From the IMG/VR virus record IMGVR_UViG_649989997_000001, positions 50,552-114,551 of that record: 64,000 nucleotides of DNA, one strand, 5' to 3'. Shown here in pieces: positions 437-61,637 of this stretch (its first letter is position 1; every line of letters starts with the position of its first letter). The stretch is from a virus. Lineage: Duplodnaviria; Caudoviricetes. The notes under the pieces are model-generated. The model had not been told where the DNA came from and ran no database searches. It saw only the letters and a list, made by a program, of their open reading frames with translations. The position numbers and the translations under genes were made by a program.

Positions 437-453
437 CTTCCCGCCCCCATTCT

Positions 454-547
454 TTAATACCCCGTTTGAACCGACGTTTTTGTGCGTGCGTCCCCTCCCC
501 GGTCCAGTAATGGCGCGGCTTTAGAGATTTGACCGCCCCCTAGGGGG
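454..547 (-). other. Putative cos/packaging region of prophage A
   Basis: Between HNH and terS; contains the CCCCCTAGGGGG palindrome; blocks are conserved with identical spacing at 42211-42303. Confidence 0.7.
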
Positions 548-608
548 TAAGTTCGTGTTGCATTTGCTTCACTTTCGCGTTACAATAAACAAAAGGAGGT
601 TATGCCCC

Positions 609-12530: not shown

Positions 12531-12535
12531 GATTT

Positions 12536-39981: not shown

Positions 39982-40167
39982 TCATACCTGCTCGTACCAC
40001 TTCGTCCCTGTCTCAGCAGCAAAGCCCGCCGCCTCCTCATCCGCTTTGGCGTAGGACAGCCCGTCGGAGAGTCGGTAGATCGCCTTTGCCGTGAGCGTCG
40101 GTGTGTCGAACTGAATGCTCTCCTGCTTCGAGTTGCCGCTCTCCGAGGGTTCGAGGAATTGGACTTT
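39982..40167 (-). pseudogene. Major tail protein, 3' fragment (separated by the satellite)
   Basis: KVQFLEPSESGNSKQESIQFDTPTLTAKAIYRLSDG...KWYEQV*; joins in frame to ...RYTKFY at 53879. Confidence 0.88.
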
Positions 40168-40231
40168 AGATAACTTCCCTTATGGATACCGCTTTCGCAA
40201 AAAATATGGCACATCCAGTCCGTAAAACCGA

Positions 40232-42303
<2,072 letters not shown>

Positions 42304-42440
42304 CCCGTCATAGAGATAAATAGCGGCTGTTGGAACGCAATACGGCGCAGTGCTGTCTCATATAAATCAAAGCCCTATCCTTCCTACCTGCCGAAAACAG
42401 ATACAGCGGAGCAAATCGCTCCGCCGTACCCATAACCCCT

Positions 42441-43370
42441 TTATGCAGTTATCTTGAGTGCCTTGACAGCCTCCCTGCGCATGAGTCTGCCATCCACGAA
42501 TTCCATGGCGAGATAACCGACTTGTCCGTGAAGCGCAAATTTCTCCTTGAGGGAGCGCACACGAACGGGAGAGCGATGAATCATCCAGTAGTAGCTGAAA
42601 TCTCCGAAAAGCACAGGAAATTTCCCGCTCTCGGCGTTTGGCATCCCCTCACCGATAACCACAGGCTTGCCGAGAATGGTGGCCTTATCGCTGTTCCAGA
42701 GATAGGCTCCGCTATCATCCTTCATCGTGCGAAGGAAAAGAGCCGTATCATCATTCATCAGCCATGTGCCTTTGCTGCGGTACTCCGGTTTCACCGATGC
42801 ATACAGCTTGATAAACTCATCGAAGGACAGCTTCTTGGCAGTCGCACCGACTTCCGCTCCTTTTTCGGCATGGAGAAGTCCTGTGGGCTTATTTGCCCCG
42901 TCACCGTTCAGAAAAGCATCGTCCTCGGCTTTGGCGAAGTTCTTGGCAAAGCGACGGGTAAGATGCTCCTCCATGTCGAAAGCGGCATCATGCACGAATT
43001 CCTCGGTCAATTTGACGAACACGGCAAGTTTATGGGAGTCCACCGGGTATCTGGTAAAGTCATTCAAGCCGTCATAGAGCGGGATGACACTTCCTTCCGG
43101 TACCCAGTTAGCAAAATCGGCGCAGTCATGGGCAAAGATGCGGCTTGCCCCACCATAGAACTTCACCGTGGTGCAGAGGTTCTGCGAAATGCTCTCCTGC
43201 TTGATGAAATCGTCCATAGAGGAAGCGTCTTCGGCGGGAAGCGTATACGCCGATACAGGTTTCCCCTCCGCATGGTCGAGAACCATGCAGTTGTACGGCT
43301 CTTGGCGCATGGCGTTCCAGAAATTTTTACGGTAGTCGGACGTACCGATGATATTGAAATTTGCAGACAT
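42441..43370 (-). CDS. HK97-fold major capsid homolog lacking the N-terminal scaffold region
   Basis: HKLAVFVKLTEE, AKAEDDAFLNGDGANKPTGLL, MKDDSGAYLW, FGDFSYY, VDGRL..EAVK align to the helper capsid 55695-56870. Confidence 0.88.
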   Translation of the reverse strand: MSANFNIIGTSDYRKNFWNAMRQEPYNCMVLDHAEGKPVSAYTLPAEDASSMDDFIKQESISQNLCTTVKFYGGASRIFAHDCADFANWVPEGSVIPLYDGLNDFTRYPVDSHKLAVFVKLTEEFVHDAAFDMEEHLTRRFAKNFAKAEDDAFLNGDGANKPTGLLHAEKGAEVGATAKKLSFDEFIKLYASVKPEYRSKGTWLMNDDTALFLRTMKDDSGAYLWNSDKATILGKPVVIGEGMPNAESGKFPVLFGDFSYYWMIHRSPVRVRSLKEKFALHGQVGYLAMEFVDGRLMRREAVKALKITA

Positions 43371-43372
43371 AA

Positions 43373-43705
43373 TCAAAATCCTCCCTTTTTCTTATCGCAT
43401 ACCCGGCAGGCATACAGCCCCAGTTCATGATCGTTCAGACAATGTCCCACCTGCTTCAAGAGATTGCCGCACTTGGGGCATTCAATGTCATAAACCAATG
43501 CCATATCCAGTGTGTGGGAATTCTTGGCATGAAGACGATAGAAGCCGCGCACCTCGTTATACTCGTTGCGCACCAATTCACGCGTCATATAGAGATCGTA
43601 GATGCTGCGTGTGTGCTCCTCCGAGCAAAGATTGTTCTGCGGATGAAGGCGAGTGCCGTTCTTGACGGTAGGGATAAGGGGATAGTTTTGAGCGTGATGG
43701 AACAT
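43373..43705 (-). CDS. Zinc-ribbon protein
   Basis: CPKCG...CRVCD; RBS AGGAGG. Confidence 0.65.
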   Translation of the reverse strand: MFHHAQNYPLIPTVKNGTRLHPQNNLCSEEHTRSIYDLYMTRELVRNEYNEVRGFYRLHAKNSHTLDMALVYDIECPKCGNLLKQVGHCLNDHELGLYACRVCDKKKGGF

Positions 43706-43782
43706 ACAGTTCCTCCTTCCTGCTGCAAGCAAGGCAGCAATACAGCGGCAGACGCTTCTCATCTGTCGCGTTGACATTCGAC

Positions 43783-44154
43783 TTATGATCTTGCTGTGGC
43801 GTTCCTGCCACACATTTCCGGATGAAGCATTTGAAAGAGCGTGTCTCTGTCCCCCTTCCCGGAGCGAATCAGCTCCTCGGAATAGCGGAGAAGTTCCTCT
43901 GCTACATCCCCGATGCTTCCGCGAGGAACATCGGAAACGGTCTTCACAATGAGGCAAGCCGGCGCACTGTTTCCGTGCCACAGATAGAGCGTTGCCCTCT
44001 TGTTTTCCTTGCTCGTATGCACGCCGCTGATTTCCACATGGAAGCCGTTGCCGAAATCGCGGTAAATGACCCGCTCAAGGTCAATGGTGGCGATAATGTA
44101 ATTCTTGCCCAAGGACTTGCACAAGTCCCGAAGCATACGGTCTCGTTTTGACAT
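43783..44154 (-). CDS. Hypothetical protein
   Basis: MSKRDRMLRDLCK...; RBS GGAGG abutting MITE copy 4. Confidence 0.65.
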   Translation of the reverse strand: MSKRDRMLRDLCKSLGKNYIIATIDLERVIYRDFGNGFHVEISGVHTSKENKRATLYLWHGNSAPACLIVKTVSDVPRGSIGDVAEELLRYSEELIRSGKGDRDTLFQMLHPEMCGRNATARS

Positions 44155-44169
44155 ATATACAGCCTCCCT

Positions 44170-44338
44170 TAAGGGAATCGCTGATAAAATGAAGTCTGTC
44201 AGATTGGCGTAGATTTTTTCGTCCGAACAAGGAGGCAAACCGGACGCATAGCCAAAGCTATGTGGAGGATTTGCCGACAAAGTTCGGGCAAAAAAGATGC
44301 GTCAAGATGATGCGGCTGAATTTATCAGTGCTTCCTTA
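44170..44338. repeat. MITE-like repeat, copy 4 (inside the satellite)
   Basis: Near-identical to copy 1. Confidence 0.85.
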
Positions 44339-44394
44339 AGATTTTCACTAGCGAAAATGCAGGTTTTCTCCGGCATGACAGCAGTCGGTGATTT

Positions 44395-44743
44395 GTTGTG
44401 ACGGCGTGATTCTTCCCGTGCTTGCTGCGTGACAATGAAAAACACGCGCAACGGCTTATCCCGCAGGGCTTTACAGATTTTCACGACATCCGTGACAGAA
44501 CCTCCCCCGTTCTTTTCATATCTTTTATATCTTTATACTTCATATCTATATCTTCCTAACGTTTTCAAATCCCCCCAAGAAGTTTGAAAAACTGTCACAC
44601 CGTTCACAGGTTGACTTAATCCCTTGAGATGATTGGCTTCCTCGTGTGATTCCTATGGTTTCAGACCGTCACAGAGGAATCACGGAGCATAGGCAAAAAC
44701 AGCGCAATTCCTGCATTCACGGGCAGTCATAGAACTGTCACGT
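44395..44743. other. Putative satellite replication origin
   Basis: Many GTGAC/GTCAC/TCAC iterons in both orientations flanking an AT/pyrimidine-rich tract (~44510-44560), just downstream of the primase. Confidence 0.55.
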
Positions 44744-47038
44744 TCAGGCGAGAAAGTCCTCCGAAAAGTCGCCTGCCGCATAGAAATCAAAGGTTTTTCG
44801 GTAGTGCATCATCACTTCCTGCGTGAGCGTGAACTTCCTGTAATATGTGCCTGTGCGCGTGTGGAGCGAGATGTCCTTGAAGGTGCTGCCCACGTGAGCC
44901 GCAAGTTCGTCACGAAACTCCTTCGCCGTCTTGGAGAAGCCATGGTTGTTGTCCTGACACCAAGCCTTGTACACATTGTAGATTCTCCCCGTAGTAGCGC
45001 CATCGGTGTATTTCGACTCCTCTCGTTCCTCCATGCATTCCTCGAAGAAGCAGATAACCGTATTATTCTCTCTGCGGTAGGTCTCACGAATCACATGAAT
45101 AGATTCCGGCTCGGAGAACCGATAGCCGTTGGCGATGACCGTCTGCAAGGCCGTCACAGCCTTGTAGACAATGCCCTCCCGCTCGGCATACATCTTCTCG
45201 AGAAGCAGCTTGTCCTGCGCATCCTTCGGAATTGGATTGGGGCAGTTCACTGCCATGATGCGGTTATACACCCACTTCCCATCATCCCCGCCGAATTTTG
45301 GCAGACGGTTCATACAGAACCAGAGGAGACCGCCGTAGGTAAATTCAAATCCCTGCTGTCCTTTGAACTCGGCAAAAAGGCTGTCCCCACCTGTGATTTT
45401 CTTGAAGGTCTTCAATTCCGCAACGGTAAGGAAGCTCATATCGGAACTTCCCGCAAGACGTGTGCCGTAGAGTGTTCCCGTTCCGAATCGCGCCTCAATC
45501 TCCGCGAGGTCAATGCCGATGTAGTTTCCTGTGCCCAACAGCCGCTCCACGAGGCTCTTTAACTGTGACTTTCCCGTATCTCCCTCCCCCACGAGGAAAA
45601 GTGCTTTTTTCATGCGCCATCCCTTCACATTGGAGATACACGCTCCCATGAATTCAAGGAGGAGCTGCCGAATGGCTGCATCACCGCCCGTCAGTATATG
45701 CATATAGCGGTCAAATACAGGCGTCGGCGTTTCCTTCCCCGTCCAGTTGCAGGGAATTTGAATGGTAGACATCGCCTTGGGAGAGTGCGGATGGAGCACG
45801 GCTTCCGCAGCGGACACATAGAGCAGGCCGTTCCGAAAGTTGATAAGACGCTCATCGGCGTCGAGCTTTTCCTGCGGCACATAGTCGAGGTCGGTCGCTA
45901 GAAGCTGAAATGCCTCGTTGATCGGCTTGATGCGCACCAGTTCCTCGTCATAATCGGCGATGAATTTCTTGATGACGCCCTTCATCATGTCGTCGGCATA
46001 GATGCGGTAAGCGCCCCGCTCGTATACGTACTTGATCATTCCCTGCTTCCCGCTGTTCCGAACGAGGATGTAATCCAGATGTTCCCGCACATACTTGGCA
46101 AGCATGGAAGGCTCCACATACGGTGCGCCCGTCTTCTCATGAAAGCGGATAAAATAGGGATGCTCCATCTTAGAGCGATGGAACACGCCTTGACAGGCTT
46201 CAATCCCGACCGCGATGGTCGCCTCCCGATAATCCTCCCGTTCCCACTTCTCACGATAGAGCGCGGATTGACGGAAAATGGCATCGATCATCTCGGCATC
46301 CGCACCGGTACGAAAGGCAATCAAGGCACAGAGGGCGGCATCCGCCTCCGATGGAGAGCCGTAGCCCGTGATGTCCCCACGGTCAAAGAGCGCGGCGAAC
46401 TTCTCGCCGTTCTTCTGCTCCCGTAGCTTGGAGATGGTGTTGTAGATATTCCTGTCCCCATCCCGCTTGGCACTGTACTTCTGCTTCTTGGAGCGGCGCA
46501 TATCCTTATCCAACGTGGTAAGAACGGCTGCCGTGCAGTCTTTGAGCGGCTTGTCGCTTATGACGTTTCCCGTAAAGACGGCGAAGCGATTGGTCATACC
46601 ACCGACATACAGTTCGATTTTGGTTTTGGGATGCTTGGTGTAGTATGTCTTGTCGAGTTTCCGCTGACCTTTGCCGTCAATATAGGAGGGGATCTTCTCC
46701 CGATCGCATTTTCCGTAGAAGTGTATGCCCTCGCCACTGACAGAATGCTCGGCGTACGTATCGAACCTTCGGAGCATGGTCTGCACCAGAGGATCATCCA
46801 AACCTCTGTGGTCGATGTCGAGGAATACATATCCTTCGGGAATAATGAATCCAATGCCGTCAAAGTGCTTCTCCTTGGAGGCCGTCAGAGCCTCATCATA
46901 CGTTACCCAAGAATGTCGATGCGGTGCATCCGTTCCCGTTGCCGTTCCATAAGCCGAGAACGGCTTTTTCGTCCTGTTCCCTTTGACCATGGTGTATCGC
47001 CAACACACCCATATCTTCTGTGCTTTCAGCTCCTGCAA
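44744..47038 (-). CDS. P4/D5-type primase-helicase (PrimPol + D5_N + SF3)
   Basis: FLDIDH, YAEHSVSGEGIH, INFRNG, GEGDTGKS Walker A, KKITGGD. Confidence 0.9.
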   Translation of the reverse strand: MQELKAQKIWVCWRYTMVKGNRTKKPFSAYGTATGTDAPHRHSWVTYDEALTASKEKHFDGIGFIIPEGYVFLDIDHRGLDDPLVQTMLRRFDTYAEHSVSGEGIHFYGKCDREKIPSYIDGKGQRKLDKTYYTKHPKTKIELYVGGMTNRFAVFTGNVISDKPLKDCTAAVLTTLDKDMRRSKKQKYSAKRDGDRNIYNTISKLREQKNGEKFAALFDRGDITGYGSPSEADAALCALIAFRTGADAEMIDAIFRQSALYREKWEREDYREATIAVGIEACQGVFHRSKMEHPYFIRFHEKTGAPYVEPSMLAKYVREHLDYILVRNSGKQGMIKYVYERGAYRIYADDMMKGVIKKFIADYDEELVRIKPINEAFQLLATDLDYVPQEKLDADERLINFRNGLLYVSAAEAVLHPHSPKAMSTIQIPCNWTGKETPTPVFDRYMHILTGGDAAIRQLLLEFMGACISNVKGWRMKKALFLVGEGDTGKSQLKSLVERLLGTGNYIGIDLAEIEARFGTGTLYGTRLAGSSDMSFLTVAELKTFKKITGGDSLFAEFKGQQGFEFTYGGLLWFCMNRLPKFGGDDGKWVYNRIMAVNCPNPIPKDAQDKLLLEKMYAEREGIVYKAVTALQTVIANGYRFSEPESIHVIRETYRRENNTVICFFEECMEEREESKYTDGATTGRIYNVYKAWCQDNNHGFSKTAKEFRDELAAHVGSTFKDISLHTRTGTYYRKFTLTQEVMMHYRKTFDFYAAGDFSEDFLA

Positions 47039-47070
47039 AATATCACCTCCTTTGCAAAATCAGTCATACA

Positions 47071-47250
47071 TTACGCTTTGGGGCTTGCTTCCTTGACAAG
47101 CCACGTATGGAACGCCTCGACGGGAATGAGGATTCTCGCTCCCACCCGGATGCTCGGAAAGTCTACACGGCGAGTCAGGTCGTATGCCATCGGCAGACTG
47201 ATGCCCATCCGCTCCGCCAATTCCCGCACGCTCATGGTCGTTTTCTCCAT
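47071..47250 (-). CDS. Excisionase/AlpA-like HTH protein
   Basis: TMSVRELAERMGISLPMAYDL...FPSIRVGARILIPVEAFHTWL. Confidence 0.88.
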   Translation of the reverse strand: MEKTTMSVRELAERMGISLPMAYDLTRRVDFPSIRVGARILIPVEAFHTWLVKEASPKA

Positions 47251-47709: not shown

Positions 47710-48827
47710 ATGATGGGATATAGACGAACCAACGCCGGCATGAGAGCCAACAAGCAGACGGATATGCTCGGTTTTGGAGAAGTCGGCGGCGTGGGACAGC
47801 TTGTCTACCACAGCTTTCGCTTTGCCGATTATGAGATTGATTATTTGAAGGACGGCACTTGGGCTGCCATCCCCGTATGCGACGCTCATCATCCCCCGGA
47901 TGTAACGCAAAAGGATTACATTTCGGGAGGATACATACTTTCTACCTTGTGCAATCTGGCAAAAAAATAAATGACCTCCCAAAAGAGAAGCCATTCACGG
48001 ATTTGATTTTGGACTGGTGCAAGGATGTGATGCACCCTTATCATATAGATGAAGTCTACGGCGAATTGACGGATGAGCAATTCGACCTTGGCGATATGAC
48101 AGCGGAGCTTGCTGTCCGTGATGCCACCTTCTCCCTTCATACCTTTATGGAAGAACTCGGGAAACTCTATGATACTGCCCGTTTCTACACGGCTCTCATG
48201 CGGATTTGCGAGGGAGATTCCGATGAAACCTACGATATGTACGATGAAGATAAACGCTTCCCGGGGCTGCCGTACTTGGAGCGGTACAAACACAGTATGC
48301 GCGCACCAAAAAATATAGATGTGAGTGCCGCCAAGGGGGACTTGCTCAAGGAAATGCAAATCGAGTGCGCGTATATGGAAGCGCACCCTTCTGAGCAGCC
48401 CAAAGAGGGAGATTACGCCGCAGAGCCTTTCGATGACTACGATCGGCTGCGGGATTTGCTCATGGAAAGCGTCCCGGATTTCCGTCTGCGGCTCAAGCTA
48501 AGTCCGAAAACAGGACGTATGACCTTTGCCGTGGATGTGGATTCGGTCTTTGAGATTGCTTGGCTCACCCTTGCCCACATGATGTCAGAAGATCCCATCG
48601 AGGAACACCACGGCGGTTCTCACGAAGGATTGACGGGCGTTATGATGACCTGCCGCCACTGTGGGGACTTCTTCATTCGCAGAAACAATCGGCAGGAATA
48701 CTGCGACAAGGAAAAATGCCAGAAAGCACGGAATGCCAAAAATCAGCGAGAATTTCGCAATCGCAAGAGAATGTTAAAGGCGGGAAAGAAAATGCAAACG
48801 GAGGAGAATTACAATGGCAAAGCTTGA
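47710..48827 (+). CDS. Putative regulator with C-terminal CGNR-like zinc finger; split at an A7 tract (47961-47967)
   Basis: Divergent from xis; CRHCGDFF...QEYCDKEKC...NQREFR; the two ORFs fuse by a -1 shift. Confidence 0.6.
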
Positions 48828-51210
48828 ATATCAAGAAAAAGATGGCAAGGTATTTTGCCCATTAGCAAATAAGTGGCTTGTTGCAAAACCGGAGGAAAAG
48901 GTTAGGCAGAGATATGTCTGTACTCTTGTGAATGACTATGGGTACTCTTTAGACCAGATGGCGCAAGAGTTAAAAGTCAATAATTCGCAGCGTGGGCAAG
49001 GCAAGGCTCGTGCAGATATTGTAATATGGAAAAGCAAAAAAGATAAAGATGATAAAAAAACAGCTTTTATAGTTATAGAATGCAAAGCTGAAAATGTAAA
49101 AATCCGCGTAGAGGACTACTATCAAGGCTTCAACTATGCCGCTTGGGCACACGCTGATTTCTTTGTTACTACAAACGAGAAGGAAACAAAGTTCTTTAAT
49201 GTTGATCCGGCATTTCTTCCACAAAAACTGGAGGAAGTTGTAGCCATACCTACTGCTAAGGACATCGACGACGCTAAGAAAATTGAGCAAATCAAGAATC
49301 AGACAAAGACATTCACACGTGAGGAATTTACAAAAACTTTACAGGCTTGCCATAACATCATCCGCAATAATGATAAATTATCACCAGAGGCGGCATTTGA
49401 CGAAATCAGCAAACTACTTTTTATGAAAATCAGATATGAGCGTCAGCAAAGAGGCACAAAAGTATTTACCAAAGCGGAATATCTGTCTCAAGCTGATAAT
49501 TACGAAAAAAATATGCGTCCCGGGTTAAAAGCGAGAGGTATTGACCAAGCTTATATGCAGAACCTATTCGACACCACAAAAATCGAATTTAAAGAAGACC
49601 ATCTGTTCGAGGATAATGATGAAATTAAAATCAGAGAGAACAGCTTTGTGCAGATTTTGGAGAAGCTGGAAAATTACAATTTGTCTGATACACAGGATGA
49701 TGTAAAAGGCATCGCTTTTGAGCAATTTCTCGGTACAACTTTTCGCGGTGAACTTGGACAATTCTTTACGCCGAGAACAATTGTGGATTTTATGACGGAG
49801 ATACTCGATCCTCAGGAAGGGGAAGTTATCTGCGATCCAACTTGCGGCTCTGGGGGGTTTCTCATCAAAGCATTTGAATATGTGCGTGAGAAAATAGAGG
49901 CTGATGTCAGATTACAGAAAGAAAAACTGAGAGCTTCTCTTGAAGGAAATGACTTTGACAGCAAGCTGGAAGAAGAACAGATAGAAATCAGCGATAAAAT
50001 AGATGCGATGCAAACTGCACTGAATACTGAACTAGATACTTCTATCAAGGAGAGTCGAATGTATCAGCTTTCCCGCAATTGTATTTATGGAACGGATGCA
50101 AATCCTCGTATGGCACGAACATCCAAAATGAACATGATTATGCATGGTGATGGTCACGGCGGCGTACATCATCACGATGGTCTGCTCAATGTCAACGGTA
50201 TATTCGAGGAAAGATTTGATGTAATTCTGACAAATCCGCCATTTGGTCAGAATGTTGACCGTAATCAGCTCATTTCCGAGGCTGATCGCTTTACTGATGA
50301 GGAGATGAAAAGAAAATACAAACAAAAATATGGGAAATCCTATGATGAAGCTCTTAAACAGGTTGATGACCACATCGGTGCATCCCTACTCTCGCTTTAC
50401 GACCTTGGCAACACAAGTACCCTTACGGAAGTTCTTTTTATGGAGCGGTGTCTTCGTTTGCTCAAAAAAGGTGGAAGGATGGGCATGGTTCTCCCCGAAG
50501 GCGTACTTAACAATAAAAACCTTGCCACAGTCAGAGAATACTTTGAAGGACGTGCAAAACTTATACTCATTTGCTCGATCCCCCAAGATGTGTTCATCGC
50601 AGCAGGAGCAACAGTAAAGCCGTCCCTCGTCTTTATGCGCAAGTTTACAGATGAGGAAGAGCAAGAATATGCTCGTTGTAAAAAAACTGCGCTCGATGAA
50701 GTAACCGCACTTCATCAACCCGAAATCGACGACCTGAATACCACTATCGCCGAATGTAGCTCCAATACAGATATCTTAAAAAAAGATTTGAAGGATGCTC
50801 GTATTCGAATGAAACAGGCAAAAAAAGCAAAAGATGCGGATTTCTCTGCAATTGAGAAAGAGGTCGAAGCCATTCAGCTGGAACAGAAAGAAAACAGAGA
50901 CTCGAAGAAGTCTGCAGAGAAGGCTCTCAAAGACCTGCAGAAACAGATCGCGGATGAGACCAAACCCGTCGTAAAGAAAAAATTTGACTACGATGTGCCG
51001 ATTGCAAAGATCGATGATGCAGGAATCACTACCACCGGAGCGGCATCAGAAGGCAATCAGTTACCTGCCTTGGTGAATGAATATCGGGATTATCGAATTC
51101 AGAACCACTTATGGTATTCAGAAAAAATCAATGTCGAATACAGTCTTAATGCAGACGGATTTTATTGCAGAAACAGCCATGAAAAGGAGGTTGTATTAAA
51201 TGAACAATAA
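48814..51210 (+). CDS. Fused restriction endonuclease (HsdR_N-like) and N6-adenine methyltransferase
   Basis: PEEKVRQ..ADIVIW..IECK nuclease; GQFFTPR, DPTCGSGGF, TNPPFG, VLPEG. Confidence 0.9.
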   Translation: MAKLEYQEKDGKVFCPLANKWLVAKPEEKVRQRYVCTLVNDYGYSLDQMAQELKVNNSQRGQGKARADIVIWKSKKDKDDKKTAFIVIECKAENVKIRVEDYYQGFNYAAWAHADFFVTTNEKETKFFNVDPAFLPQKLEEVVAIPTAKDIDDAKKIEQIKNQTKTFTREEFTKTLQACHNIIRNNDKLSPEAAFDEISKLLFMKIRYERQQRGTKVFTKAEYLSQADNYEKNMRPGLKARGIDQAYMQNLFDTTKIEFKEDHLFEDNDEIKIRENSFVQILEKLENYNLSDTQDDVKGIAFEQFLGTTFRGELGQFFTPRTIVDFMTEILDPQEGEVICDPTCGSGGFLIKAFEYVREKIEADVRLQKEKLRASLEGNDFDSKLEEEQIEISDKIDAMQTALNTELDTSIKESRMYQLSRNCIYGTDANPRMARTSKMNMIMHGDGHGGVHHHDGLLNVNGIFEERFDVILTNPPFGQNVDRNQLISEADRFTDEEMKRKYKQKYGKSYDEALKQVDDHIGASLLSLYDLGNTSTLTEVLFMERCLRLLKKGGRMGMVLPEGVLNNKNLATVREYFEGRAKLILICSIPQDVFIAAGATVKPSLVFMRKFTDEEEQEYARCKKTALDEVTALHQPEIDDLNTTIAECSSNTDILKKDLKDARIRMKQAKKAKDADFSAIEKEVEAIQLEQKENRDSKKSAEKALKDLQKQIADETKPVVKKKFDYDVPIAKIDDAGITTTGAASEGNQLPALVNEYRDYRIQNHLWYSEKINVEYSLNADGFYCRNSHEKEVVLNEQ

Positions 51211-52579
51211 GTCGGCCATCCTTTCCAATGTTTTGTTTTCTTCACTTGGGCAGTGGGATGTAAAGCAGTTTCTGCTAAACAAGATAAAGTCAATCTATCC
51301 AGTAGAGCCATTAGGAAAGCATTTAATTCATCAAACAGAAAAGATTCAGCTATCCGATTACCCTGATGAGGATTGCACTATTCTTGGCGTTTCCAATAAG
51401 GTCGGAATGTTTGATGCCGGTGTTAAAAAGGGTAAGAAGATAAAGCAGAAATACCACAGGGTAGAAAGCGGTTGGCTTGCTTATAACCCGTACAGGATCA
51501 ATGTCGGCTCTATAGGCATTAAAACAGCCGATTTAAAAGGTGACTACATCAGTCCCGCATATGTCGTTTTCAGCTGCATGGAAACTCTAATTCCACAATT
51601 CTTATGGTTGATGATGAGGAGCGAATACTTCAACACTTTAATCAAAGATTCAACCACAGGTTCGGTTAGACAAACGTTGAGTTATGAAAAATTAGCAGCT
51701 ATTGAGGCACCTATTCCGCCAATCCCGGAACAAGAACAGATCCTAAAGGTATATCACGCCACGATTGCGGCGGCCGAAAAAAGTATGTCTGACGGGGACG
51801 ATTTCAGCAGTGGCTTACTATTCGATATCCAGTCTACAGTTTCAGATTTGAAGGAGCAGGATGTGTCGACAGCGACAACATCATCGATTCTTCAAATCAT
51901 ATCTTATTCATCCGTATCACGCTGGGAAGTTGCGTTTGGTTTAAAAGAAGGCAAATTGGACAAGGTCTATAACAGTTTCAAATCCCCCATACACACAATT
52001 GCGGAACTTACAAAGGAGTCGCTTTTCGGGCTGTCGATAAAGGCATCTCCCACACAGAAAACGGGTATGATACCAATGCTGCGAATGCCTAACATCGTCG
52101 ATGGGGCGCTTGATTTAGACGATTTAAAGTACTTACCACGCAAAACTGCGACTACGGCAAGGGAGCCGGATAAATGGTTATTACGTAAAGGCGACTTCCT
52201 GATTAACAGAACAAACAGCAAAGAGCTCGTTGGGAAATCAGCAGTCTTTAACCTTGACGGCGATTACACCTATGCCTCATACGTCATACGGTATCGGTTT
52301 GATACTTCTATAGTTTTGCCAGAATATGTGAACATCCTATTCATGCTTCCATTGGTACGATTTCAAATCGATACTATGAGCAGACAAACAGCAGGACAGT
52401 GTAATATAAATAGTGACGAAATAGGTTCTATCCGTATCCCGATTCCCTCAATCTCAGAGCAAGAGGAAATCATCAAGAAATACTACTCCACAAAAGACGG
52501 AGCCGACAAGTTCTATACAAAAGCTGAAGAATTAAGGAAAAAAGCCTACACAGATTTCGAGAAGACTATATTTGCGTAA
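51200..52579 (+). CDS. R-M specificity subunit (two TRDs)
   Basis: ISPAYVVF...PIPPIPEQEQI and GDFLINRTNS...PIPSISEQEEI. Confidence 0.88.
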   Translation: MNNKSAILSNVLFSSLGQWDVKQFLLNKIKSIYPVEPLGKHLIHQTEKIQLSDYPDEDCTILGVSNKVGMFDAGVKKGKKIKQKYHRVESGWLAYNPYRINVGSIGIKTADLKGDYISPAYVVFSCMETLIPQFLWLMMRSEYFNTLIKDSTTGSVRQTLSYEKLAAIEAPIPPIPEQEQILKVYHATIAAAEKSMSDGDDFSSGLLFDIQSTVSDLKEQDVSTATTSSILQIISYSSVSRWEVAFGLKEGKLDKVYNSFKSPIHTIAELTKESLFGLSIKASPTQKTGMIPMLRMPNIVDGALDLDDLKYLPRKTATTAREPDKWLLRKGDFLINRTNSKELVGKSAVFNLDGDYTYASYVIRYRFDTSIVLPEYVNILFMLPLVRFQIDTMSRQTAGQCNINSDEIGSIRIPIPSISEQEEIIKKYYSTKDGADKFYTKAEELRKKAYTDFEKTIFA

Positions 52580-52583
52580 ATCT

Positions 52584-52616
52584 GAAGGCACGGAGAAAAA
52601 ATCTTTCCGTGCCTTT
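52584..52616. terminator. Terminator between the convergent S subunit and DUF4314 genes
   Basis: AAGGCACGGA...TCCGTGCCTT. Confidence 0.7.
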
Positions 52617-52634
52617 CCTCAACTCCTCATCTTT

Positions 52635-52886
52635 TTACTGTTGATGGCTTGACTTTTTATTTGCAGCCTTCATACTTCGGAATTCGTCCACTTCAGGAAT
52701 AAGGCTTAGGGATGAGCCATTTTGCCAGCGCACCAAAATGCTTCCAGCATCGTCTACTCCCCAAACCGTCCCCAATGTCCCGGCAGGAGGCGCTTGGGTA
52801 TCTTCTATCGAGATAATCTCGACCACCGTCCCCGCGGGGTACTTTTTGCGGAACATTTCGATGTGTTCTTTACTGGGAAATTTCAT
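52635..52886 (-). CDS. DUF4314 protein (satellite copy)
   Basis: YPAGTVVE...APPAGTLGTVWGVDDAGSILVRWQNGSSLSLIP. Confidence 0.85.
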   Translation of the reverse strand: MKFPSKEHIEMFRKKYPAGTVVEIISIEDTQAPPAGTLGTVWGVDDAGSILVRWQNGSSLSLIPEVDEFRSMKAANKKSSHQQ

Positions 52887-53680
52887 TATAAGCAGTCTCC
52901 TTTGCGATGTCCGCATTTGAATGCACTGTTCCCCCAAAGATTCTGAAGGAGAATTTTCCGGGTGGTCTTATACTTATTTCCAATCAACCCCAATCGCAAA
53001 AGGAAGCAGCGGAATGCGTACTTGGGGTTGTCCACTTTCTTTTCTTTGGCAAGTACACGCTTCTGCCGCTGTGCCATATCGCACAGCTTGCTGATGAAAT
53101 CAGCGTAGGCACGATACGCCTCCGGCGTGAGTGTTCCGTGAAACCATGCGAAAGTAATCCGCTCCTCTGTCAGCGTATAGTTTACCTCCTCGATGTCGAA
53201 CGCCGCCTTGATGAGATTCCCTTTGCTTTTGAGCAAGGCATCTAAATTTGCCAATGCAGTGTCGGAGAAATTTTCCCTCGGCATACTGATAGAAAGATTG
53301 ACGATATCCTCCTGTGACTCAATGGGGGCAGATTCCTCCATGATGTGTTCCTCGACTGTCTGCGCCATCGCTTCAATCTCCGTAATCTGTGTACCCTCCT
53401 CCTGCAGAGTGTCCTTGGCCTCTTCCATACTGCTGTCAGTGAGAACATCCCCTTCGGACTGCTCTGCCATGAATCCTGCTGCTTCAATGGCTGCGAGGAC
53501 GTTTGCCGTCTGCTCATCCTTCTCGAAAATCAGCACGCCGTGCTTAGTGACCTCGTAACTGCCAATCTGAAAGGCAAAGCTCGGTGTCCCCATATACTTT
53601 GGTCTGATTCCCAAAGCATCTCCGATAGTCTTGACTAGGCGCTTGCGGTCTGCTCCGCTCACGTTGTAATTGCGTTCCAT
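52886..53680 (-). CDS. Phage 'virulence-related' family protein (satellite copy)
   Basis: RKRLV...PKYMGTPSFAF...NPKYAFRCFLLRLGLIG...RKILLQNL.GNSAFK; homolog of 62560-63309. Confidence 0.8.
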   Translation of the reverse strand: MERNYNVSGADRKRLVKTIGDALGIRPKYMGTPSFAFQIGSYEVTKHGVLIFEKDEQTANVLAAIEAAGFMAEQSEGDVLTDSSMEEAKDTLQEEGTQITEIEAMAQTVEEHIMEESAPIESQEDIVNLSISMPRENFSDTALANLDALLKSKGNLIKAAFDIEEVNYTLTEERITFAWFHGTLTPEAYRAYADFISKLCDMAQRQKRVLAKEKKVDNPKYAFRCFLLRLGLIGNKYKTTRKILLQNLWGNSAFKCGHRKGDCL

Positions 53681-53878
53681 GATGTTGTCCTCCTTTGTAA
53701 TGGTGTGGTTTTCCATGTCTATCTATCACTCGCCGAGGCAGAAATTGCAAGTACTTTTTGAGATATACTCTCATAAAGCAACGACCATGCAGGATTTTTG
53801 CATCCACATGGTCGTCTTCCTCTTGAAGATTGTCGATAAAACTACGTTGATTATGTATCCCTAAGAAAACTCATCTTT

Positions 53879-54292
53879 GTAGAATTTGGTGTATCTCTTC
53901 TTGCCGTTGCGCTTATCTGACTGAAAGAGCACGGCGAAGTACGGAGCGACATCGTCCTTGCCCGCCTTCATCACGCCGTTCTCGATACTGTGTCCCAAAA
54001 GATAGGCTGTGTATTCCAAAGGAAGCGCGGCAGTATCGAAGGTGAGGTCGTAGGATGCGGTATTCGATGCCGTATCTACGGACTGCCCGTCGGCGAAAAG
54101 CTCCGCCTGATTCGTCTGTGGCTTGATGTCCACCTTACGCAGAAGTTTTCCGAGCGGAATCGGAGCCTCGTAGGTCGCCGCTCCTCCTGCCACATCGGTG
54201 AGCATCTTCGCGATATGAAGTTTCTGGATGTTGATGAACTGCCCGCTCGTAAGATTTGCGGCGGGCTTTCCAGTTGGTGTTGGACTTGGCAT
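53879..54292 (-). pseudogene. Major tail protein (phi13-like), 5' fragment
   Basis: INIQKLHIAKM...ELFADG...YLLGH...APYFAVLFQSDKRNGKKRYTKFY; reads into the satellite to end DEFS*. Confidence 0.88.
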
Positions 54293-55694: not shown

Positions 55695-56870
55695 TCAGCC
55701 CTTCATCTTAAGCGTCTGCACGGCTTCCTCAAGAACGAGCTTTCCGTCTACCCGCTCCTTCATGACGTAGCCGACCATACCGTTGCCTGCAAACAGCTCC
55801 TTGAGTTCCTGCAGGGAACGTGTCCCACGGTCGCCGATGTTGTAGTAGGAGTAATCCCCGAATGCAATGACGATCTTTCCCGCCTCGACAGCGGGCATAT
55901 ACGCCGAGGAGTAGACGGGATAGCCGAGCAGACGGTCGGGTTCGCCCATCTGATACGACGGCTGCCAGAAGTATGCGCCATTCGCATCCTTGAGTTTGCG
56001 GATGCTGGCAAGCGTCTGGTCGTTGACGATGAATGCTGCATTCTTGCGGTAGGGACGCTTGAGGTTGTAGACGAGTGTCACGAGTTCGTCTGCCTTGAGG
56101 TCGGCTGCCGCCGTGGTAACGGATGTCTTTGCCGAGGCAAGAAGTCCCTTCGGCTTGTGCGTCCCATCGCCGTTCAGGAATGCGTCCTCCTCTGCGTTGC
56201 CGAGTGCCTTGCCGAACTGCTCGATGAGATAGCTCTCAAGGTTGAATGCGTTATCATAGAGAAGTTCCTCCGTCACCTTGACCGCAACATGGAGCTTGTG
56301 CGCGTCGAGGACGATCTGGTCAAAGGTCGCATCCCCGAAGGTGAGCGGCGCACCTTCCTCAATCCACGATGCGGCGGGCTTTGTGGCGGCAATGTTGATC
56401 TTATGCTCTCCGCTTGTGGTAATCACCGTCGCAAGCGGGCGCAGAACGTTCTCCTCATTCAGAACGTCGATCAGACGCTGATCGTATTCCTCGGGAACGA
56501 GATAGCCGCCGTTTGCATCCACGCCTTCCTGCAGGACGTTCTCCACCTGCCGGAAATTCGTACGCAGTGCCTTGAGCATTGCCGCACGGTATGCCTTGCT
56601 TGCACGCCCCGTCTTTTCAGAAGACAATCCTGCCCCCGGAGTGTTGGTGATCGCCGCTGTCACAGGCTTTGCGAGCTGCGCGTCGAGAATCGCCTGACGC
56701 TCCATGCGCTCGATGTCCTTCCCGAGCGCAAGCACCTCATTCTCCATCTGCTCGTACGCTTTGGCATCCTCTGCCGTAAGACGACCGTCCTTTTCGTGAG
56801 AATCCAGAAACTGCTTTGCCTGTTCCCACATTTCCGCACGCTTCTCGCGCATTGCCATGATCTTATCCAT
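55695..56870 (-). CDS. Major capsid protein (HK97 family)
   Basis: N-terminal coiled-coil delta domain, GGYLVPEE, EEDAFLNGDG..KPKG, FGDYSYY. Confidence 0.95.
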   Translation of the reverse strand: MDKIMAMREKRAEMWEQAKQFLDSHEKDGRLTAEDAKAYEQMENEVLALGKDIERMERQAILDAQLAKPVTAAITNTPGAGLSSEKTGRASKAYRAAMLKALRTNFRQVENVLQEGVDANGGYLVPEEYDQRLIDVLNEENVLRPLATVITTSGEHKINIAATKPAASWIEEGAPLTFGDATFDQIVLDAHKLHVAVKVTEELLYDNAFNLESYLIEQFGKALGNAEEDAFLNGDGTHKPKGLLASAKTSVTTAAADLKADELVTLVYNLKRPYRKNAAFIVNDQTLASIRKLKDANGAYFWQPSYQMGEPDRLLGYPVYSSAYMPAVEAGKIVIAFGDYSYYNIGDRGTRSLQELKELFAGNGMVGYVMKERVDGKLVLEEAVQTLKMKG

Positions 56871-56885: not shown

Positions 56886-57581
56886 TTAATGCGAAATAGA
56901 AAAGAGCCGCTTCTTAAACGGCTCTGCATCGACATTAGTATTTTGCGTTCCCTGCCCGAATTTCGAGAGCAGAGAGTTCGTGACGGCGGCACGGGAGAAG
57001 ATCAGTCCGTCCTCCATATCCGTCACAGGACGCTGAACGTCCGCATAGAGAACAGAATCTGCAAATCCAAGCTCCACTGCTTTCTTTGCGTTCATCCACG
57101 TTTCGGCATCCATGAGCCTTGAAATCTTGGCACGGGACAATCCCGTCCTTAACTCATAGGCGTTGATGATGCTCTCCTTGATCTCGGCAAGGAATGTGAT
57201 TGTCCGCTCCATTTCGTGCGTGTCTCCGATGGAAACAGTCATCGGATTATGGATCATAATGGTGGCCACGGGCGACATCTCAACTGTTGTTCCTGCCATC
57301 GCAACAACAGAGGCAGCTGATGCCGCAATCCCGTCAATCTTGACATTGACGTTTCCCTTATACTCCATGAGCATATTGTAGATCTGTGCCGCTGCATAGC
57401 AGTCGCCGCCCGGCGAGTTGATCCAGAGGTCAATATCTCCCTCAGCTGCGTTCAGCTCAGAGCGAAACGTCTGGGGTGTGACTTCATCGCCCCACCACGT
57501 CTCGTCCGAGATTTCACCGTCCAGAAGCAAGATTCGCTTCTCTCCCTCGTTCCGTACCCAGTTCCAAAATTTACGCTTCAT
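56886..57581 (-). CDS. ClpP-like prohead protease
   Basis: INSPGGD, DGIAASAASV, MIHNP, ETWM. Confidence 0.93.
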   Translation of the reverse strand: MKRKFWNWVRNEGEKRILLLDGEISDETWWGDEVTPQTFRSELNAAEGDIDLWINSPGGDCYAAAQIYNMLMEYKGNVNVKIDGIAASAASVVAMAGTTVEMSPVATIMIHNPMTVSIGDTHEMERTITFLAEIKESIINAYELRTGLSRAKISRLMDAETWMNAKKAVELGFADSVLYADVQRPVTDMEDGLIFSRAAVTNSLLSKFGQGTQNTNVDAEPFKKRLFSISH

Positions 57582-58824
57582 CGCTTTCTCCCTCCTGATT
57601 TCCTGCGAACAAGCCCGCATCCTTCAGTTTCGTCATATTCCCGTTGATAAGGTATAGATCGCCGCCCTCGCTAGATTCAATCGGATTCATGTCTTCGAGA
57701 CTGCGGATGTCGTTTGCCGAGAGCCATCCGTTCTGCCGCCCGATGGCATATCCCTCCATGCGGCTCTTGTAGTCTCCGCGCAGCAACCCGTCCACGTTGA
57801 AACGGATGAAGTAGTCCTTCCGCTCTTTATCCGTCAGCAGTGCTTTTTGCAGGGACTGCTCCCACCGCACCACCCACGGATTCAGTGTGTATTTGACAAA
57901 TTCAAGCGACTGCTGCTCGATATTTGAGAAACTGGACTTCTCCAAGTCTCCCACCATATGCGGCGGCACACGATAGAGCCGTGCGATCTCGTCGATCTGG
58001 AACTTCCTCGTCTCTAGGAACTGAGCCTCCTCGGGCGGTATGGCAATCTGCTGATATTTCACGCCCTCTTCCAGCACAGCAATCCTGCCTGTGTTCATTG
58101 TACCGCCGTAGACGGCGTGCCAGCTCTCACGGAGCTTCGACGGATCTTTGAGAACCCCCGGATGTTCGAGTACGCCGCCCGGACGCGCACCGTTCTTGAA
58201 GAATGCCGCGCCGTACTCTTCCGTTGCCAGAGCGATGCCGATGGCATTCTTCGCCATAGCGATGGGGCTGTAGCCCACAAGACCATCGAAGCCGAGTCCC
58301 GGAATATGCAGCACATCCTCACGTCGCAGACGAATCTGCCCCTTATCCGCAAAATTCGGATTCTCCTCCGTGCTTCTGGTGTAGGTGTAGTAGAGTTCGC
58401 CTGTGTGGCTGTCACGGCTCACCTCCATCTTGTCCGGGAGCAGCGGATAGAGACCAAGAACACGTCCACTGCCATCCCGAAGTATCTGGGCATAGGCGTT
58501 TCCCCACAGAAGAAGGTGAATCATCATTGTTTCGCGAAATATAAAGGAGGTCATCTCGGGATTCGGTGCATCGTGGAGCAGGAGGTACAGCGGGTGCTCC
58601 GGCACGCGCTCTTTGCCCTGCCCTTTGTATGCGTAAACATGAAGGGGCAGCCCTGCGATGGATTCTGCGAGGATGCGGCCACAAGCGTAGACTGCCGTCG
58701 TCTGCATCGCGGTTCTCTCATTGACCGCCTTGCCCGCCGCCGTCTGCCCAAACAAAAAGGACAAGCCGCCGAGATGATTCATGGGCTTGTCCCGCGAACG
58801 GAAGAGTTTTGTAAAGAAATTCAT
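57571..58824 (-). CDS. Portal protein (HK97 family)
   Basis: AVYAC..ILAESIAGLPL, LLWGNAY, GYSPI, QFLETRKFQIDEIAR. Confidence 0.95.
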   Translation of the reverse strand: MNFFTKLFRSRDKPMNHLGGLSFLFGQTAAGKAVNERTAMQTTAVYACGRILAESIAGLPLHVYAYKGQGKERVPEHPLYLLLHDAPNPEMTSFIFRETMMIHLLLWGNAYAQILRDGSGRVLGLYPLLPDKMEVSRDSHTGELYYTYTRSTEENPNFADKGQIRLRREDVLHIPGLGFDGLVGYSPIAMAKNAIGIALATEEYGAAFFKNGARPGGVLEHPGVLKDPSKLRESWHAVYGGTMNTGRIAVLEEGVKYQQIAIPPEEAQFLETRKFQIDEIARLYRVPPHMVGDLEKSSFSNIEQQSLEFVKYTLNPWVVRWEQSLQKALLTDKERKDYFIRFNVDGLLRGDYKSRMEGYAIGRQNGWLSANDIRSLEDMNPIESSEGGDLYLINGNMTKLKDAGLFAGNQEGESDEA

Positions 58825-58900
58825 ATAATCCCCCCCTTGAAGATGATTGTATGCTATGATATACATATTTTTTTTTAGACTTGCAGAAAGGATGCTTCTG

Positions 58901-59971
58901 ATGAAAAAGCTCGCTTTATTGATTGTATGCTTCCTTTTGATTGTGATGAACAATTCATATTGCTATGCTGTTCGTAGTGAAATATATGAAAATCGACTAG
59001 CATATTCGTCGGATCTGTATGATGTCTATATAACCACAAATCTTGTTGAAAATCAGCTATTCAATTTCTACTCCAATAAAAAGATCGAGATGACCATCAT
59101 AAAGAAGATAAAATCGAGGTCATATGTGAATCATATTCAAAGCGTGATTCGTGAATTTTATGCACCACCATTTTGGAATCCGGAGGATATTGTTTCAAGG
59201 ATTGGTTCTGCCTACGCTAACAATGATTTATGGATTCAAGAAAAAATATATCTAGACTTTAGAACACGATCTGTAGCGATATTTGATGAATCTTTATGGA
59301 CGAAAGCGGGGAAAAATCCTGAGATTATACTAAACCTAGATCCAGAAGGTACGTTTCATACAGACTACAACTTTTCCGACATGGATAATAGCCCTGAATA
59401 TGCCGAAATCGCCAATGCTTCAATAGAGTTCCTCGAATCAATTAAGGATACTTACTTCAATAAAAACAAACGCAAAGAACATGAACTAAATGTGATATAT
59501 TCAAGAAATTTTGACTACTACTGGGCAAGATTGACAAAGAAATGGGAAAAAACTGATGATATTGATCCGAAGACTGAAAAAATCTTCTATGCACGTTTTA
59601 CCGATATATATGTTGACGCACAATCTATTCGCTGGGTAGATAACTACCTTGAAGGATGGATACGTCTTGATATTGATGTAGGGCGGCTCATAACCCCTGA
59701 AATGTCGAAAGAAAAACAGGACAAATTATTAATGAATATACCGATAAAGTCTGCTTTATACTACACAAGATTTGACCCAAACAAGAAACAATTTCTAGTG
59801 ATTGCAGGTTATGAAACTGCAAGAGATGGCAGTGTAAAAAAATATGTGTTGAAGACACCTGAATTATGGACATATGATTCCGCCCCTGATGTCGTAGCAG
59901 GGGTATTAAATAAAGTAGCGGACATATACAATCATAAAAGAGACTTTTGGGGAAGTAGAGGAACTCGATAA
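58901..59971 (+). CDS. AT-rich secreted moron protein between terL and portal
   Basis: MKKLALLIVCFLLIV signal peptide; opposite strand; low GC. Confidence 0.75.
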   Translation: MKKLALLIVCFLLIVMNNSYCYAVRSEIYENRLAYSSDLYDVYITTNLVENQLFNFYSNKKIEMTIIKKIKSRSYVNHIQSVIREFYAPPFWNPEDIVSRIGSAYANNDLWIQEKIYLDFRTRSVAIFDESLWTKAGKNPEIILNLDPEGTFHTDYNFSDMDNSPEYAEIANASIEFLESIKDTYFNKNKRKEHELNVIYSRNFDYYWARLTKKWEKTDDIDPKTEKIFYARFTDIYVDAQSIRWVDNYLEGWIRLDIDVGRLITPEMSKEKQDKLLMNIPIKSALYYTRFDPNKKQFLVIAGYETARDGSVKKYVLKTPELWTYDSAPDVVAGVLNKVADIYNHKRDFWGSRGTR

Positions 59972-60035
59972 ACTGTGGTTTGAGTAAGCAGATTAAATGG
60001 GGGCTTAATGTCATCGGTGTAAAGATACAATTCGC

Positions 60036-61637
60036 TCACATCACCAACACCCCACGATTTTCATACACCGATTCCGACGTATCGTTCCCACACCGAATCG
60101 CACGGTCAAGTGCCATAATGAGCGCGATTACACCGTCGATCTTCTCGGTGGACTTCTCCTTGTCCGCCTTGATGTTGCCCGCAGGGTCGGTGCGAATAAA
60201 GATGTTGTCTGCCATCCAGCGCATGACGGGATGCCCGCCGTGCGCTATTTTCTTTTCCAGTGTCAGCTTCATCAACTCTTTGGTCGGCGGACTCATATCC
60301 TTGAAGCCTTGCCCGAACGGAACAACGGTGAATCCCATTCCCTCAAGGTTCTGCACCATCTGCACCGCGCCCCAGCGGTCAAAGGCAATCTCGCGGATGT
60401 TGTACTTTTCGCCCAATTTCTCGATGAACGCCTCGATGAATCCGTAATGCACAACATTCCCCTCCGTGGTCATGAGAAAGCCCTGCTTCTCCCACACGTC
60501 ATACGGCACATGGTCACGCCGCACGCGCAGGTCGATGTTATCCTCGGGAATCCAGAAGTACGGAAGCACGGCAAACGGCTCATCTTCCTCGGTCGGAGGG
60601 AACACGAGAACAAATGCCGTAATGTCCATCGTGGAGGAAAGGTCAAGACCGCCGTAACAGACACGTCCTTCCAAACCATCCGCATCCACAGGTATGGCGC
60701 ACGCATCCCACCTATCCATTGGCATCCACCGCACGGACTGCTTCACCCACTGATTCAGACGCAGCTGACGAAAGCTGTTTTCCTCGGCAGGGTTCTGCCG
60801 TGCAGAGTCACACGCCGCCTGTACCTTGTCGATGCCGACCGTGATGCCGAGGGACGGATTCGACCGTTTCCATACCTCGGGGTCTGTCCAGTCCTCATCT
60901 TCCTTCGCTCCGTAGATCACGGGATAGAAGGTCGGGTCGATTTTTCTCCCTTCGAGAATGTCCTTCGCTTTCTGGTGCGTCTCGTAGCAGATGGACTGCG
61001 TATCCGTTCCTGCCGTGGTGATAAGGAAGTAGAGTGGCTGCATACGCGCATCGCCGGAGCCTTTCGTCATAACATCAAAGAGCTTGCGATTCGCCTGCGT
61101 GTGAAGTTCGTCGAATACAACGCCATGGATATTGAAGCCATGCTTCGAGTATGCTTCTGCCGAAAGCACCTGATAAAAGCTATTCGTCGGAAGATAGACC
61201 ATTCGCTTCTGGGAGGCAAGGATCTTCACCCGCTTACCGAGTGCGGGACACATCCGCACCATATCTGCTGCGACCTCAAAGACAATGCTCGCCTGCTGAC
61301 GATCGGCAGCACAGCCATACACCTCGGCACGTTCCTCCCCGTCGCCGCAGCAAAGGAGCAGTGCAACGGCGGCCGCAAGTTCGCTCTTCCCGTTCTTCTT
61401 CCCTATCTCGATATACGCCGTGTTGAACTGGCGATACCCGTTCGGCTTCAAAATTCCGAAAATGTCTCGGATAATGCGCTCCTGCCAGTCGATGAGTTCA
61501 AAGGGCTTTCCTGCCCACGTCCCCTTCGTATGGCACAGACACTCGATGAATCCCACAGCGTAGTCCGCAGCTTCTTTGTCATAATGCGCGTTCTCTGCCA
61601 TAAACTTTGTCGGCTTGTAGTCCGTAAGTTTTCGCAA
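60036..61637 (-). CDS. terL: Terminase large subunit
   Basis: KKNGKSE Walker A, VVFDELH, ITTAG, GGLDLSS, KIDGVIA. Confidence 0.95.
   Translation of the reverse strand: MRKLTDYKPTKFMAENAHYDKEAADYAVGFIECLCHTKGTWAGKPFELIDWQERIIRDIFGILKPNGYRQFNTAYIEIGKKNGKSELAAAVALLLCCGDGEERAEVYGCAADRQQASIVFEVAADMVRMCPALGKRVKILASQKRMVYLPTNSFYQVLSAEAYSKHGFNIHGVVFDELHTQANRKLFDVMTKGSGDARMQPLYFLITTAGTDTQSICYETHQKAKDILEGRKIDPTFYPVIYGAKEDEDWTDPEVWKRSNPSLGITVGIDKVQAACDSARQNPAEENSFRQLRLNQWVKQSVRWMPMDRWDACAIPVDADGLEGRVCYGGLDLSSTMDITAFVLVFPPTEEDEPFAVLPYFWIPEDNIDLRVRRDHVPYDVWEKQGFLMTTEGNVVHYGFIEAFIEKLGEKYNIREIAFDRWGAVQMVQNLEGMGFTVVPFGQGFKDMSPPTKELMKLTLEKKIAHGGHPVMRWMADNIFIRTDPAGNIKADKEKSTEKIDGVIALIMALDRAIRCGNDTSESVYENRGVLVM

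Follow-up and report, generated by a model that had tools for sequence, protein, structure and literature searches.

The locus analysed here raises the question of why a small genetic island that encodes no other component of a virus particle should carry a gene for a phage major capsid protein, and why the protein in question should be missing its scaffolding domain. The gene lies in a stretch of 64,000 nucleotides (hereafter the window; positions 50,552 to 114,551 of the IMG/VR record IMGVR_UViG_649989997_000001), and an earlier note, made from the sequence alone, had proposed that its product either joins helper subunits in small heads sized for a 13.7-kb satellite or poisons helper head assembly. 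We give about an even chance to the view that the product is a head-morphogenesis protein of a cos-type satellite, which would co-assemble with helper subunits into small heads. We infer the co-assembly, the small heads and the interference with the helper by analogy with known satellites, while the satellite nature of the island, its tie to one phage lineage and the character of the capsid homologue itself can be followed in the sequences.

The island is an insert of 13.7 kb (40168-53879) that splits the tail-tube gene of a prophage. When the sequence 54292-53880 is joined to 40168-39982 an ORF of 199 aa is obtained, which aligns across the junction to the intact tail-tube homologues of related prophages. 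The capsid homologue is the sole virion gene of the island (Table 1), which has its own primase and replication module and no lysis or tail genes. Scans of the island ORFs against Pfam, PHROG and NCBIfam detected no portal, protease, terminase, scaffold or tail gene, in agreement with the earlier note, which had reported that a cognate portal and protease were lacking. The surrounding prophage provides a ClpP-type protease, portal, TerL, connectors and tape measure, and is one of at least two related prophages on the 114.5-kb record, the capsid proteins of which are 95.7% identical. At the far end of the island, the DUF4314 protein and the amidoligase-like protein are 50-58% identical to those encoded by pairs of genes located between terS and terL in both prophages (window 62340-63309 and G000:C1:46307-47312).

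Table 1 Features of the island, of the helper prophage around it and of the sister prophage, with positions in the window
Feature	Position	Strand	Basis or remark
Delta-less HK97-fold capsid homologue, 309 aa	42441..43370	-	Pfam, PHROG, NCBIfam, BLASTP, AF2
3' part of interrupted helper tail-tube gene	39982..40168	-	Joined-ORF alignment
5' part of interrupted helper tail-tube gene	53880..54292	-	PHROG major tail protein, 2e-31
Large serine recombinase (Resolvase, Recombinase, Zn ribbon and DUF4368 domains)	40232..41974	-	Pfam
TnpW-like small protein	41980..42186	-	Pfam TnpW, 3e-07; in 39 family loci, just before the recombinase
Cos-like segment	42205..42305		About 140-235 bp downstream of the capsid stop; similarity to helper HNH-terS region
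Zinc-ribbon protein, 110 aa	43373..43705	-	Stop 2 nt before the capsid ATG
123-aa ORF, no family match	43783..44154	-	
Primase-helicase (NrS-1 pol HBD, D5_N, DUF5906, Pox_D5; P4-type primase C-terminus)	44744..47038	-	
Cargo R-M: N6 methylase fused to HSDR_N domain, plus specificity subunit	48814..52579	+	
DUF4314 protein and amidoligase-like protein, far end of island	52635..53716	-	
Helper major capsid protein, 391 aa, with delta domain	55695..56870	-	TIGR01554
Helper ClpP-type prohead protease, portal and large terminase	56886..61637	-	Homologues 50-85% identical in five other genomes
HNH-terS intergenic (candidate cos) region, sister prophage	437..599	-	Matched by satellite segment

The ORF of the capsid homologue is intact (309 aa and a stop codon), with a GGGAGG ribosome-binding site 9 nt 5' of its ATG. 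Its product matches Pfam Phage_capsid (PF05065) over residues 42-306 (E 1.8e-58) and the PHROG major head protein (E 4e-61). The match to NCBIfam TIGR01554 (E 1.9e-64) covers model positions 111-385 only, leaving positions 1-110 unmatched, whereas the 391-aa helper capsid matches positions 1-385 (E 7e-101); by this measure of coverage the delta (scaffolding) domain, roughly 90 aa, is missing from the satellite protein, as the earlier note had claimed for most of that domain. BLASTP aligns the satellite and helper proteins at 38% identity over 271 residues (E 2e-58), with satellite residues 42-307 lying opposite helper residues 123-389, and a multiple alignment agrees, which bears out the motif-by-motif correspondence that had been described between the two. 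The same alignment places satellite GTSDYRKNFWNAM opposite helper GRASKAYRAAML and SAYTLPAE opposite GGYLVPEE, and so reproduces both the N-terminal pairing and the drift of the latter motif read from the sequence at the outset.

Ahead of the N-arm, the satellite protein keeps about 36 N-terminal residues, among which Y13, F17 and W18 are invariant in the family alignment and for which AlphaFold2 predicts two confident helices. Capsid proteins of the helper lineage carry the motif KTGRASDEYxxxFWNAMR at the junction of delta domain and N-arm, and satellite proteins start with the same EYxxxFWNAMR; the presence of this motif in both suggests that the satellite protein may interact with helper components. 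The AlphaFold2 model of the whole protein, for which the alignment input comprised 79 relatives, has a pLDDT of 89 and a pTM of 0.85, and its best matches among solved structures in Foldseek are the RcGTA capsid (E 1e-22), the capsid of phage Mycofy1 and that of the cf-PICI EcCI2 (9GYI), with HK97 Head II matched at E about 6e-14. On the basis of profile coverage and fold model, we regard the protein as an HK97 subunit that is complete in its shell-forming part and lacks the delta domain. The gene is under purifying selection, with a dN/dS of 0.10 between the window copy and its orthologue in L081, an IMG/VR contig that holds the same element at the same tail-gene junction, with a capsid protein 95% identical and with different cargo.

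The zinc-ribbon protein encoded immediately upstream has four invariant cysteines and a beta-rich model (pLDDT 80), and we detected no match to it among solved folds in the PDB (Foldseek; VIA-align, best Z 3.8) or among profiles. We considered whether this ORF could be the detached delta domain or scaffold of a split capsid gene, and this was ruled out, as the protein is a beta-rich zinc ribbon conserved as a separate gene. It is a candidate for a partner of the capsid protein, or for a modulator of terminase or of late genes. Just upstream of the adjacent 123-aa ORF lies a repeat of about 165 bp (window 44172-44335) that recurs three times between the prophages at 84-96% identity (23873-24036, 26195-26361 and 28359-28420) and once in the L081 cargo (L081:3142-3304). 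The repeat contains a TTGACG box and a T-run, and it showed no convincing covariation; an Rfam scan of the window returned no match.

Downstream of the capsid gene, a segment (42211-42303) resembles two other places on the record at 75-78% identity over 94-95 bp (E 5e-12 and 3e-9). One of these (window 454-546) lies in the sister prophage, downstream of the HNH gene and directly upstream of terS. HNH/cos phages usually have their cos between HNH and terS, and in the sister prophage terS (Terminase_4) stands directly downstream of the candidate site, with the HNH gene (1190-1546) upstream and a 109-aa ORF between the HNH gene and the site. Just upstream of HNH, candidate cos and terS, the sister prophage also encodes a Sigma70_r4/DUF1492 protein (window 1672-2112), a possible activator of late genes, in which case a late promoter could form part of the shared region along with cos. 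That this region is inverted in the satellite speaks for cos.

The association between capsid gene and cos-like site extends across the family. In most family loci the core motif GGGGYGGTCWRATCTCTR is found on the opposite strand 100-205 bp downstream of the capsid gene, and in other subgroups it occurs 0.5-1 kb upstream of it; by chance, about 0.1 matches per locus would be expected, with no positional preference. The capsid gene is thus physically linked to a cos-like site in relatives of the island as well. Moreover, the segment that follows the satellite capsid gene matches the HNH-terS intergenic region of the cognate helper in three of the four pairs that could be examined (86.5% over 296 bp, E 3e-98; 71% over 99 bp, E 3e-8; 82% over 39 bp, E 0.003), while in G003 no cos match was found between satellite and cognate helper. 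From these similarities, the satellite carries the putative cos site of its helper.

Co-occurrence points to the same phage lineage. All five near-complete satellite genomes hold one prophage of the helper lineage, with TerL 75-85%, portal 63-72%, protease 50-65% and capsid 47-49% identical, at a distance of 200-280 kb from the satellite. In a sample of 300 evenly drawn Clostridia genomes, the helper-lineage TerL is present in 34, the delta-less capsid in 10 and both in 6; with the centre genome left out, helper TerL occurs in 5 of 9 satellite-bearing genomes versus 28 of 290 others (odds ratio 11.7, p 0.0011). The cos copy, the co-occurrence with one lineage, the nesting in a tail-tube gene and the lack of packaging and portal genes in the island together identify it as a cos-type, helper-dependent satellite. 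The setting assumed in the earlier note is consequently strongly supported, and it is replicated beyond the window, with cos copies in three other genomes.

The helper TerL (window 60036-61637) is found at 63-86% identity in about 11% of the 300 genomes, and at 75-85% identity in satellite genomes of Acetobacterium, Neglectibacter, Acetivibrio and Syntrophomonas. Conservation of this degree is unusual for a phage gene across such distant hosts. Acetobacterium carbinolicum DSM 2925 and Acetivibrio mesophilus N2K1 (loci L056 and L034) are examples of strains in which satellite and helper are found together.

The satellite proteins belong to a large family. More than 1600 non-redundant homologues were found, and lengths fall between 305 and 321 aa in nearly all of the best 120; family members are 41-95% identical across very different Clostridia and form a group of their own. 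From genomes and IMG/VR we took 149 loci, 118 of which fall in the capsid cluster. The gene order conserved over these 118 loci runs from a primase-helicase (82 loci) through the zinc-ribbon gene (75, directly upstream of the capsid gene), the capsid gene and the TnpW-like gene (39) to the serine recombinase (104, immediately downstream of the capsid module). Other recurrent neighbours include an XRE repressor and an HTH_17 protein encoded in divergent orientation, alternative primases, in a minority of cases tyrosine integrases, and defence cargo, namely R-M systems of types I, IIG and III and the Kiwa protein KwaB. The XRE and HTH_17 pair lies upstream of the primase in relatives, and the small ORFs found there in the window match no family. 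Variant loci (L086:1419-2774, L127:6804-9146, L129:14843-15772) show a tyrosine integrase in place of the serine recombinase, a DUF3987-type primase or a KwaB-like gene.

No head or packaging gene recurs among the neighbours of the 118 loci, as judged by de novo clustering and Pfam, and a tblastn search of 80 family loci with the portal, protease and TerL of the helper returned one distant protease match; nor does any cargo-enzyme partner recur across the family neighbours. Circular or excised forms were looked for as terminal direct repeats on the IMG/VR contigs carrying the capsid gene, and none were detected. Element sizes are available from two cases, the window island (13.7 kb) and a tandem array in another genome (L156 and L157; G137:C1:333001-367000), where three copies of a related satellite follow each other with a period of about 9.1 kb. 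The capsid protein of the tandem element is about 40% identical, its primase is different and it has no matching serine recombinase. A full-text literature search found no description of a family of satellites with a delta-less capsid protein, and neither a preprint on a transposon within a prophage of A. intestini nor a paper on C. clostridioforme prophages covers it. The family is widespread in Clostridia and apparently undescribed.

How such a protein might act is best judged against known satellites. P4 Sid and SaPI1 CpmA/CpmB cause the helper to build T=4 rather than T=7 heads, which suit a genome of about a third of the helper's size; these proteins are external or internal scaffolds, whereas the window protein is a capsid homologue. 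To our knowledge, capsid-size redirection by satellites is known from P4, SaPIs, PLE and PICIs, and redirection by means of a capsid homologue has been shown only for SaPIbov5. The island resembles SaPIbov5 (PMC5052747, PMC8569155) in having a satellite-encoded homologue of the helper capsid and a helper cos site, and in having no portal, protease or terminase of its own; in both systems the helper is of the HNH/cos type, with a delta domain fused to its capsid protein. SaPIbov5 carries the cos site of its helper, and its protein Ccm alone is needed to turn phi12 heads to small T=4 shells, of which it forms the pentamers (PMC8569155). Ccm is 355 aa long and keeps a delta domain of 87 residues (residues 1-87) that is later cleaved off (PMC8569155), unlike the window protein, which at 309 aa has only about 36 residues ahead of the N-arm and no delta domain. 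Because Ccm keeps this domain, the analogy is functional and implies no family membership. No Ccm chain was present among the profile matches to solved structures at E <= 0.001, so the window protein looks like an independent recruitment. The two systems also differ in their hosts (Clostridia, not staphylococci) and in that the island has a serine recombinase at its 3' end rather than a tyrosine integrase.

Lone capsid genes are additionally known from PICIs of Gram-negative bacteria, such as c1499 of EcCICFT073 and a homologue in PmCI172 (PMC6092414), and a capsid gene occurs in 21 of 29 reference PICIs (PMC10111431). PICIs are about one third of helper size, and PmCI172 is packaged in small heads, EcCICFT073 in full-size heads (PMC6092414). 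In common with the Gram-negative PICIs, the window island has a single capsid homologue and a primase and is a helper-dependent island of roughly 10-15 kb, and those of E. coli carry helper cos (PMC6092414); in contrast to the window island, they are of lambdoid type, have tyrosine integrases and reside in Proteobacteria, and a missing delta domain is not reported for them. The characteristic PICI arrangement of a tyrosine integrase at the 5' end beside divergent regulators is replaced here by a large serine recombinase at the 3' end. The cf-PICI EcCI2 (9GYI) offers another parallel, being a satellite with its own HK97-fold capsid, which is among the best structural matches, yet the head module of cf-PICIs is complete (portal, protease, connectors, terS) and only their tails come from the helper, whereas the window island has the capsid gene alone. 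Helper-embedded PICIs (HE-PICIs; PMC10111431) are likewise nested in their helper, as the window island is in the tail-tube gene split at 40168/53880, and some carry a capsid gene. HE-PICIs nevertheless form one tyrosine-integrase clade in enterobacteria (PMC10111431), as opposed to the large serine recombinase and tail-tube target seen here, and elsewhere the relatives of the window island are 200-280 kb away from the helper. A lone capsid homologue is already known from other satellites (SaPIbov5, Gram-negative PICIs), and what is new is the complete loss of the delta domain, the serine-recombinase backbone, a Clostridia-wide range tied to a single phage lineage and, in this instance, the nesting in the helper's tail-tube gene.

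Under the reading that we favour, induction of the helper prophage would lead the serine recombinase to excise the 13.7-kb island, restoring the helper tail-tube gene. The excised island would replicate by means of its own primase-helicase, and the zinc-ribbon and capsid genes would be expressed as a translationally coupled pair. The capsid homologue would then, most likely, enter procapsids together with the helper capsid protein, portal and protease and bias assembly to a smaller shell, probably T=4. With the cos-like site beside the capsid gene as its starting point, the helper HNH/TerS/TerL terminase would fill this shell with satellite DNA of unit length. Induction and packaging of the island by the helper phage are indicated indirectly, by the cos copy and the co-occurrence.

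Small heads are favoured by the Ccm precedent and by the size of the island, which at 13.7 kb is about 0.37 of a helper size of 35-40 kb estimated from the sister prophage plus the tail module; since a cos-packaged element must fit its head, this ratio bears on head size. Several observations temper the reading. In EcCICFT073 the lone capsid protein is not responsible for interference and heads are full-size (PMC6092414), and five other satellite-helper pairs have no pair-specific capsid similarity: in a 6x6 matrix of satellite and helper capsid identities, only the window pair stands above the others (38% vs 32-33%), and the bit scores show no diagonal excess. Three copies of the 13.7-kb island would amount to 41 kb, roughly enough to fill a head of helper size, which counts against small heads, and because related elements are about 9.1 kb long, one head size may not suit all members of the family. 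Furthermore, assembly of HK97 is reported to require the delta domain (Oh et al. 2014, cited by PMC13669383), which makes the recruitment of a delta-less subunit hard to account for. It is possible, if rather unlikely, that one delta-less capsid gene suffices, whether by forming a scaffold-free small shell on the helper portal or by setting size through the dilution of helper scaffolding domains in mixed capsomers.

An alternative, unlikely in our judgement and still deserving serious weight, is that the satellite protein alone builds a small shell on the helper portal, with the helper giving portal, terminase, connectors and tails, which would make the element a capsid-forming island reduced to one gene. 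Such self-sufficiency would be in keeping with a family that is strongly conserved, forms its own group and shows no pair-specific similarity to cognate helper capsids, and with the completeness of the HK97 fold; encapsulins are discussed in PMC13669383 as scaffold-free shells of this fold, and cf-PICIs make capsids from their own protein (9GYI). However, cf-PICIs also encode portal, protease and connectors, none of which are found in this island, HK97-type capsid proteins of this kind normally need a delta domain, and the junction motif held in common with helper capsids suggests that the protein may interact with helper components.

We consider it improbable that the capsid gene is dispensable for transfer and has a secondary role, with satellite multimers packaged in full-size helper heads as in EcCICFT073. 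Interference with lambda persisted when c1499 was deleted, and the packaged DNA was all of phage size (PMC6092414), a situation that three copies of the 13.7-kb island, at about 41 kb and near the estimated helper size, could mimic. Yet the gene is near-universal in the family and has a fixed place beside the cos-like site, which together with its dN/dS of 0.10 argues for a core role, and family members of about 9.1 kb lack the three-copy fit.

More doubtful again is that the protein is purely a decoy or poison, whose delta-less subunits cap or derail helper procapsids and thereby protect the host population, no usable satellite heads being made. Although a subunit without a scaffolding domain could be a dominant-negative partner, and the family cargo includes anti-phage defence (R-M systems, KwaB), the copying of helper cos implies that spread depends on helper heads, such that wrecking all head assembly would be self-defeating. 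Finally, it is very hard to credit that the gene is not a satellite gene at all and represents a prophage remnant or an encapsulin-like compartment gene in an integrative element, as lone Phage_capsid genes often are remnants and the island has a TnpW-like gene as in Tn4451-type transposons, given the conserved synteny (118 loci), purifying selection, cos linkage, co-occurrence with one lineage and lack of a recurrent cargo enzyme.

If the favoured co-assembly is correct, the capsid-homologue logic of SaPIbov5 operates in a very widespread Clostridia family, many of whose hosts are gut and rumen bacteria, and which is paired with one phage lineage present in about 11% of sampled Clostridia genomes. 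The family would offer a natural system in which to ask how a delta-less HK97-type subunit joins a shell and how T number is set. Given the R-M and other defence cargo, these satellites probably shape gene flow and phage resistance in the communities concerned. If true, a shell made by the satellite alone, or one sized by scaffold dilution, would be a way of fixing head size that has not been described for the capsids of tailed phages, and one exploited across Clostridia by a satellite family living off a single, very common phage lineage.

The sister prophage (G000:C1:35593-63900, partly window 1-13300) has 88-90% DNA identity with the satellite-holding prophage, and both have the same recombinase pair and head genes. 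In the sister prophage the recombinase pair abuts the head-completion genes and the whole tail module is missing, the other copy having its own at window 32309-54980. The sister prophage may consequently depend on the tails of its neighbour, whose tail-tube gene the satellite blocks.
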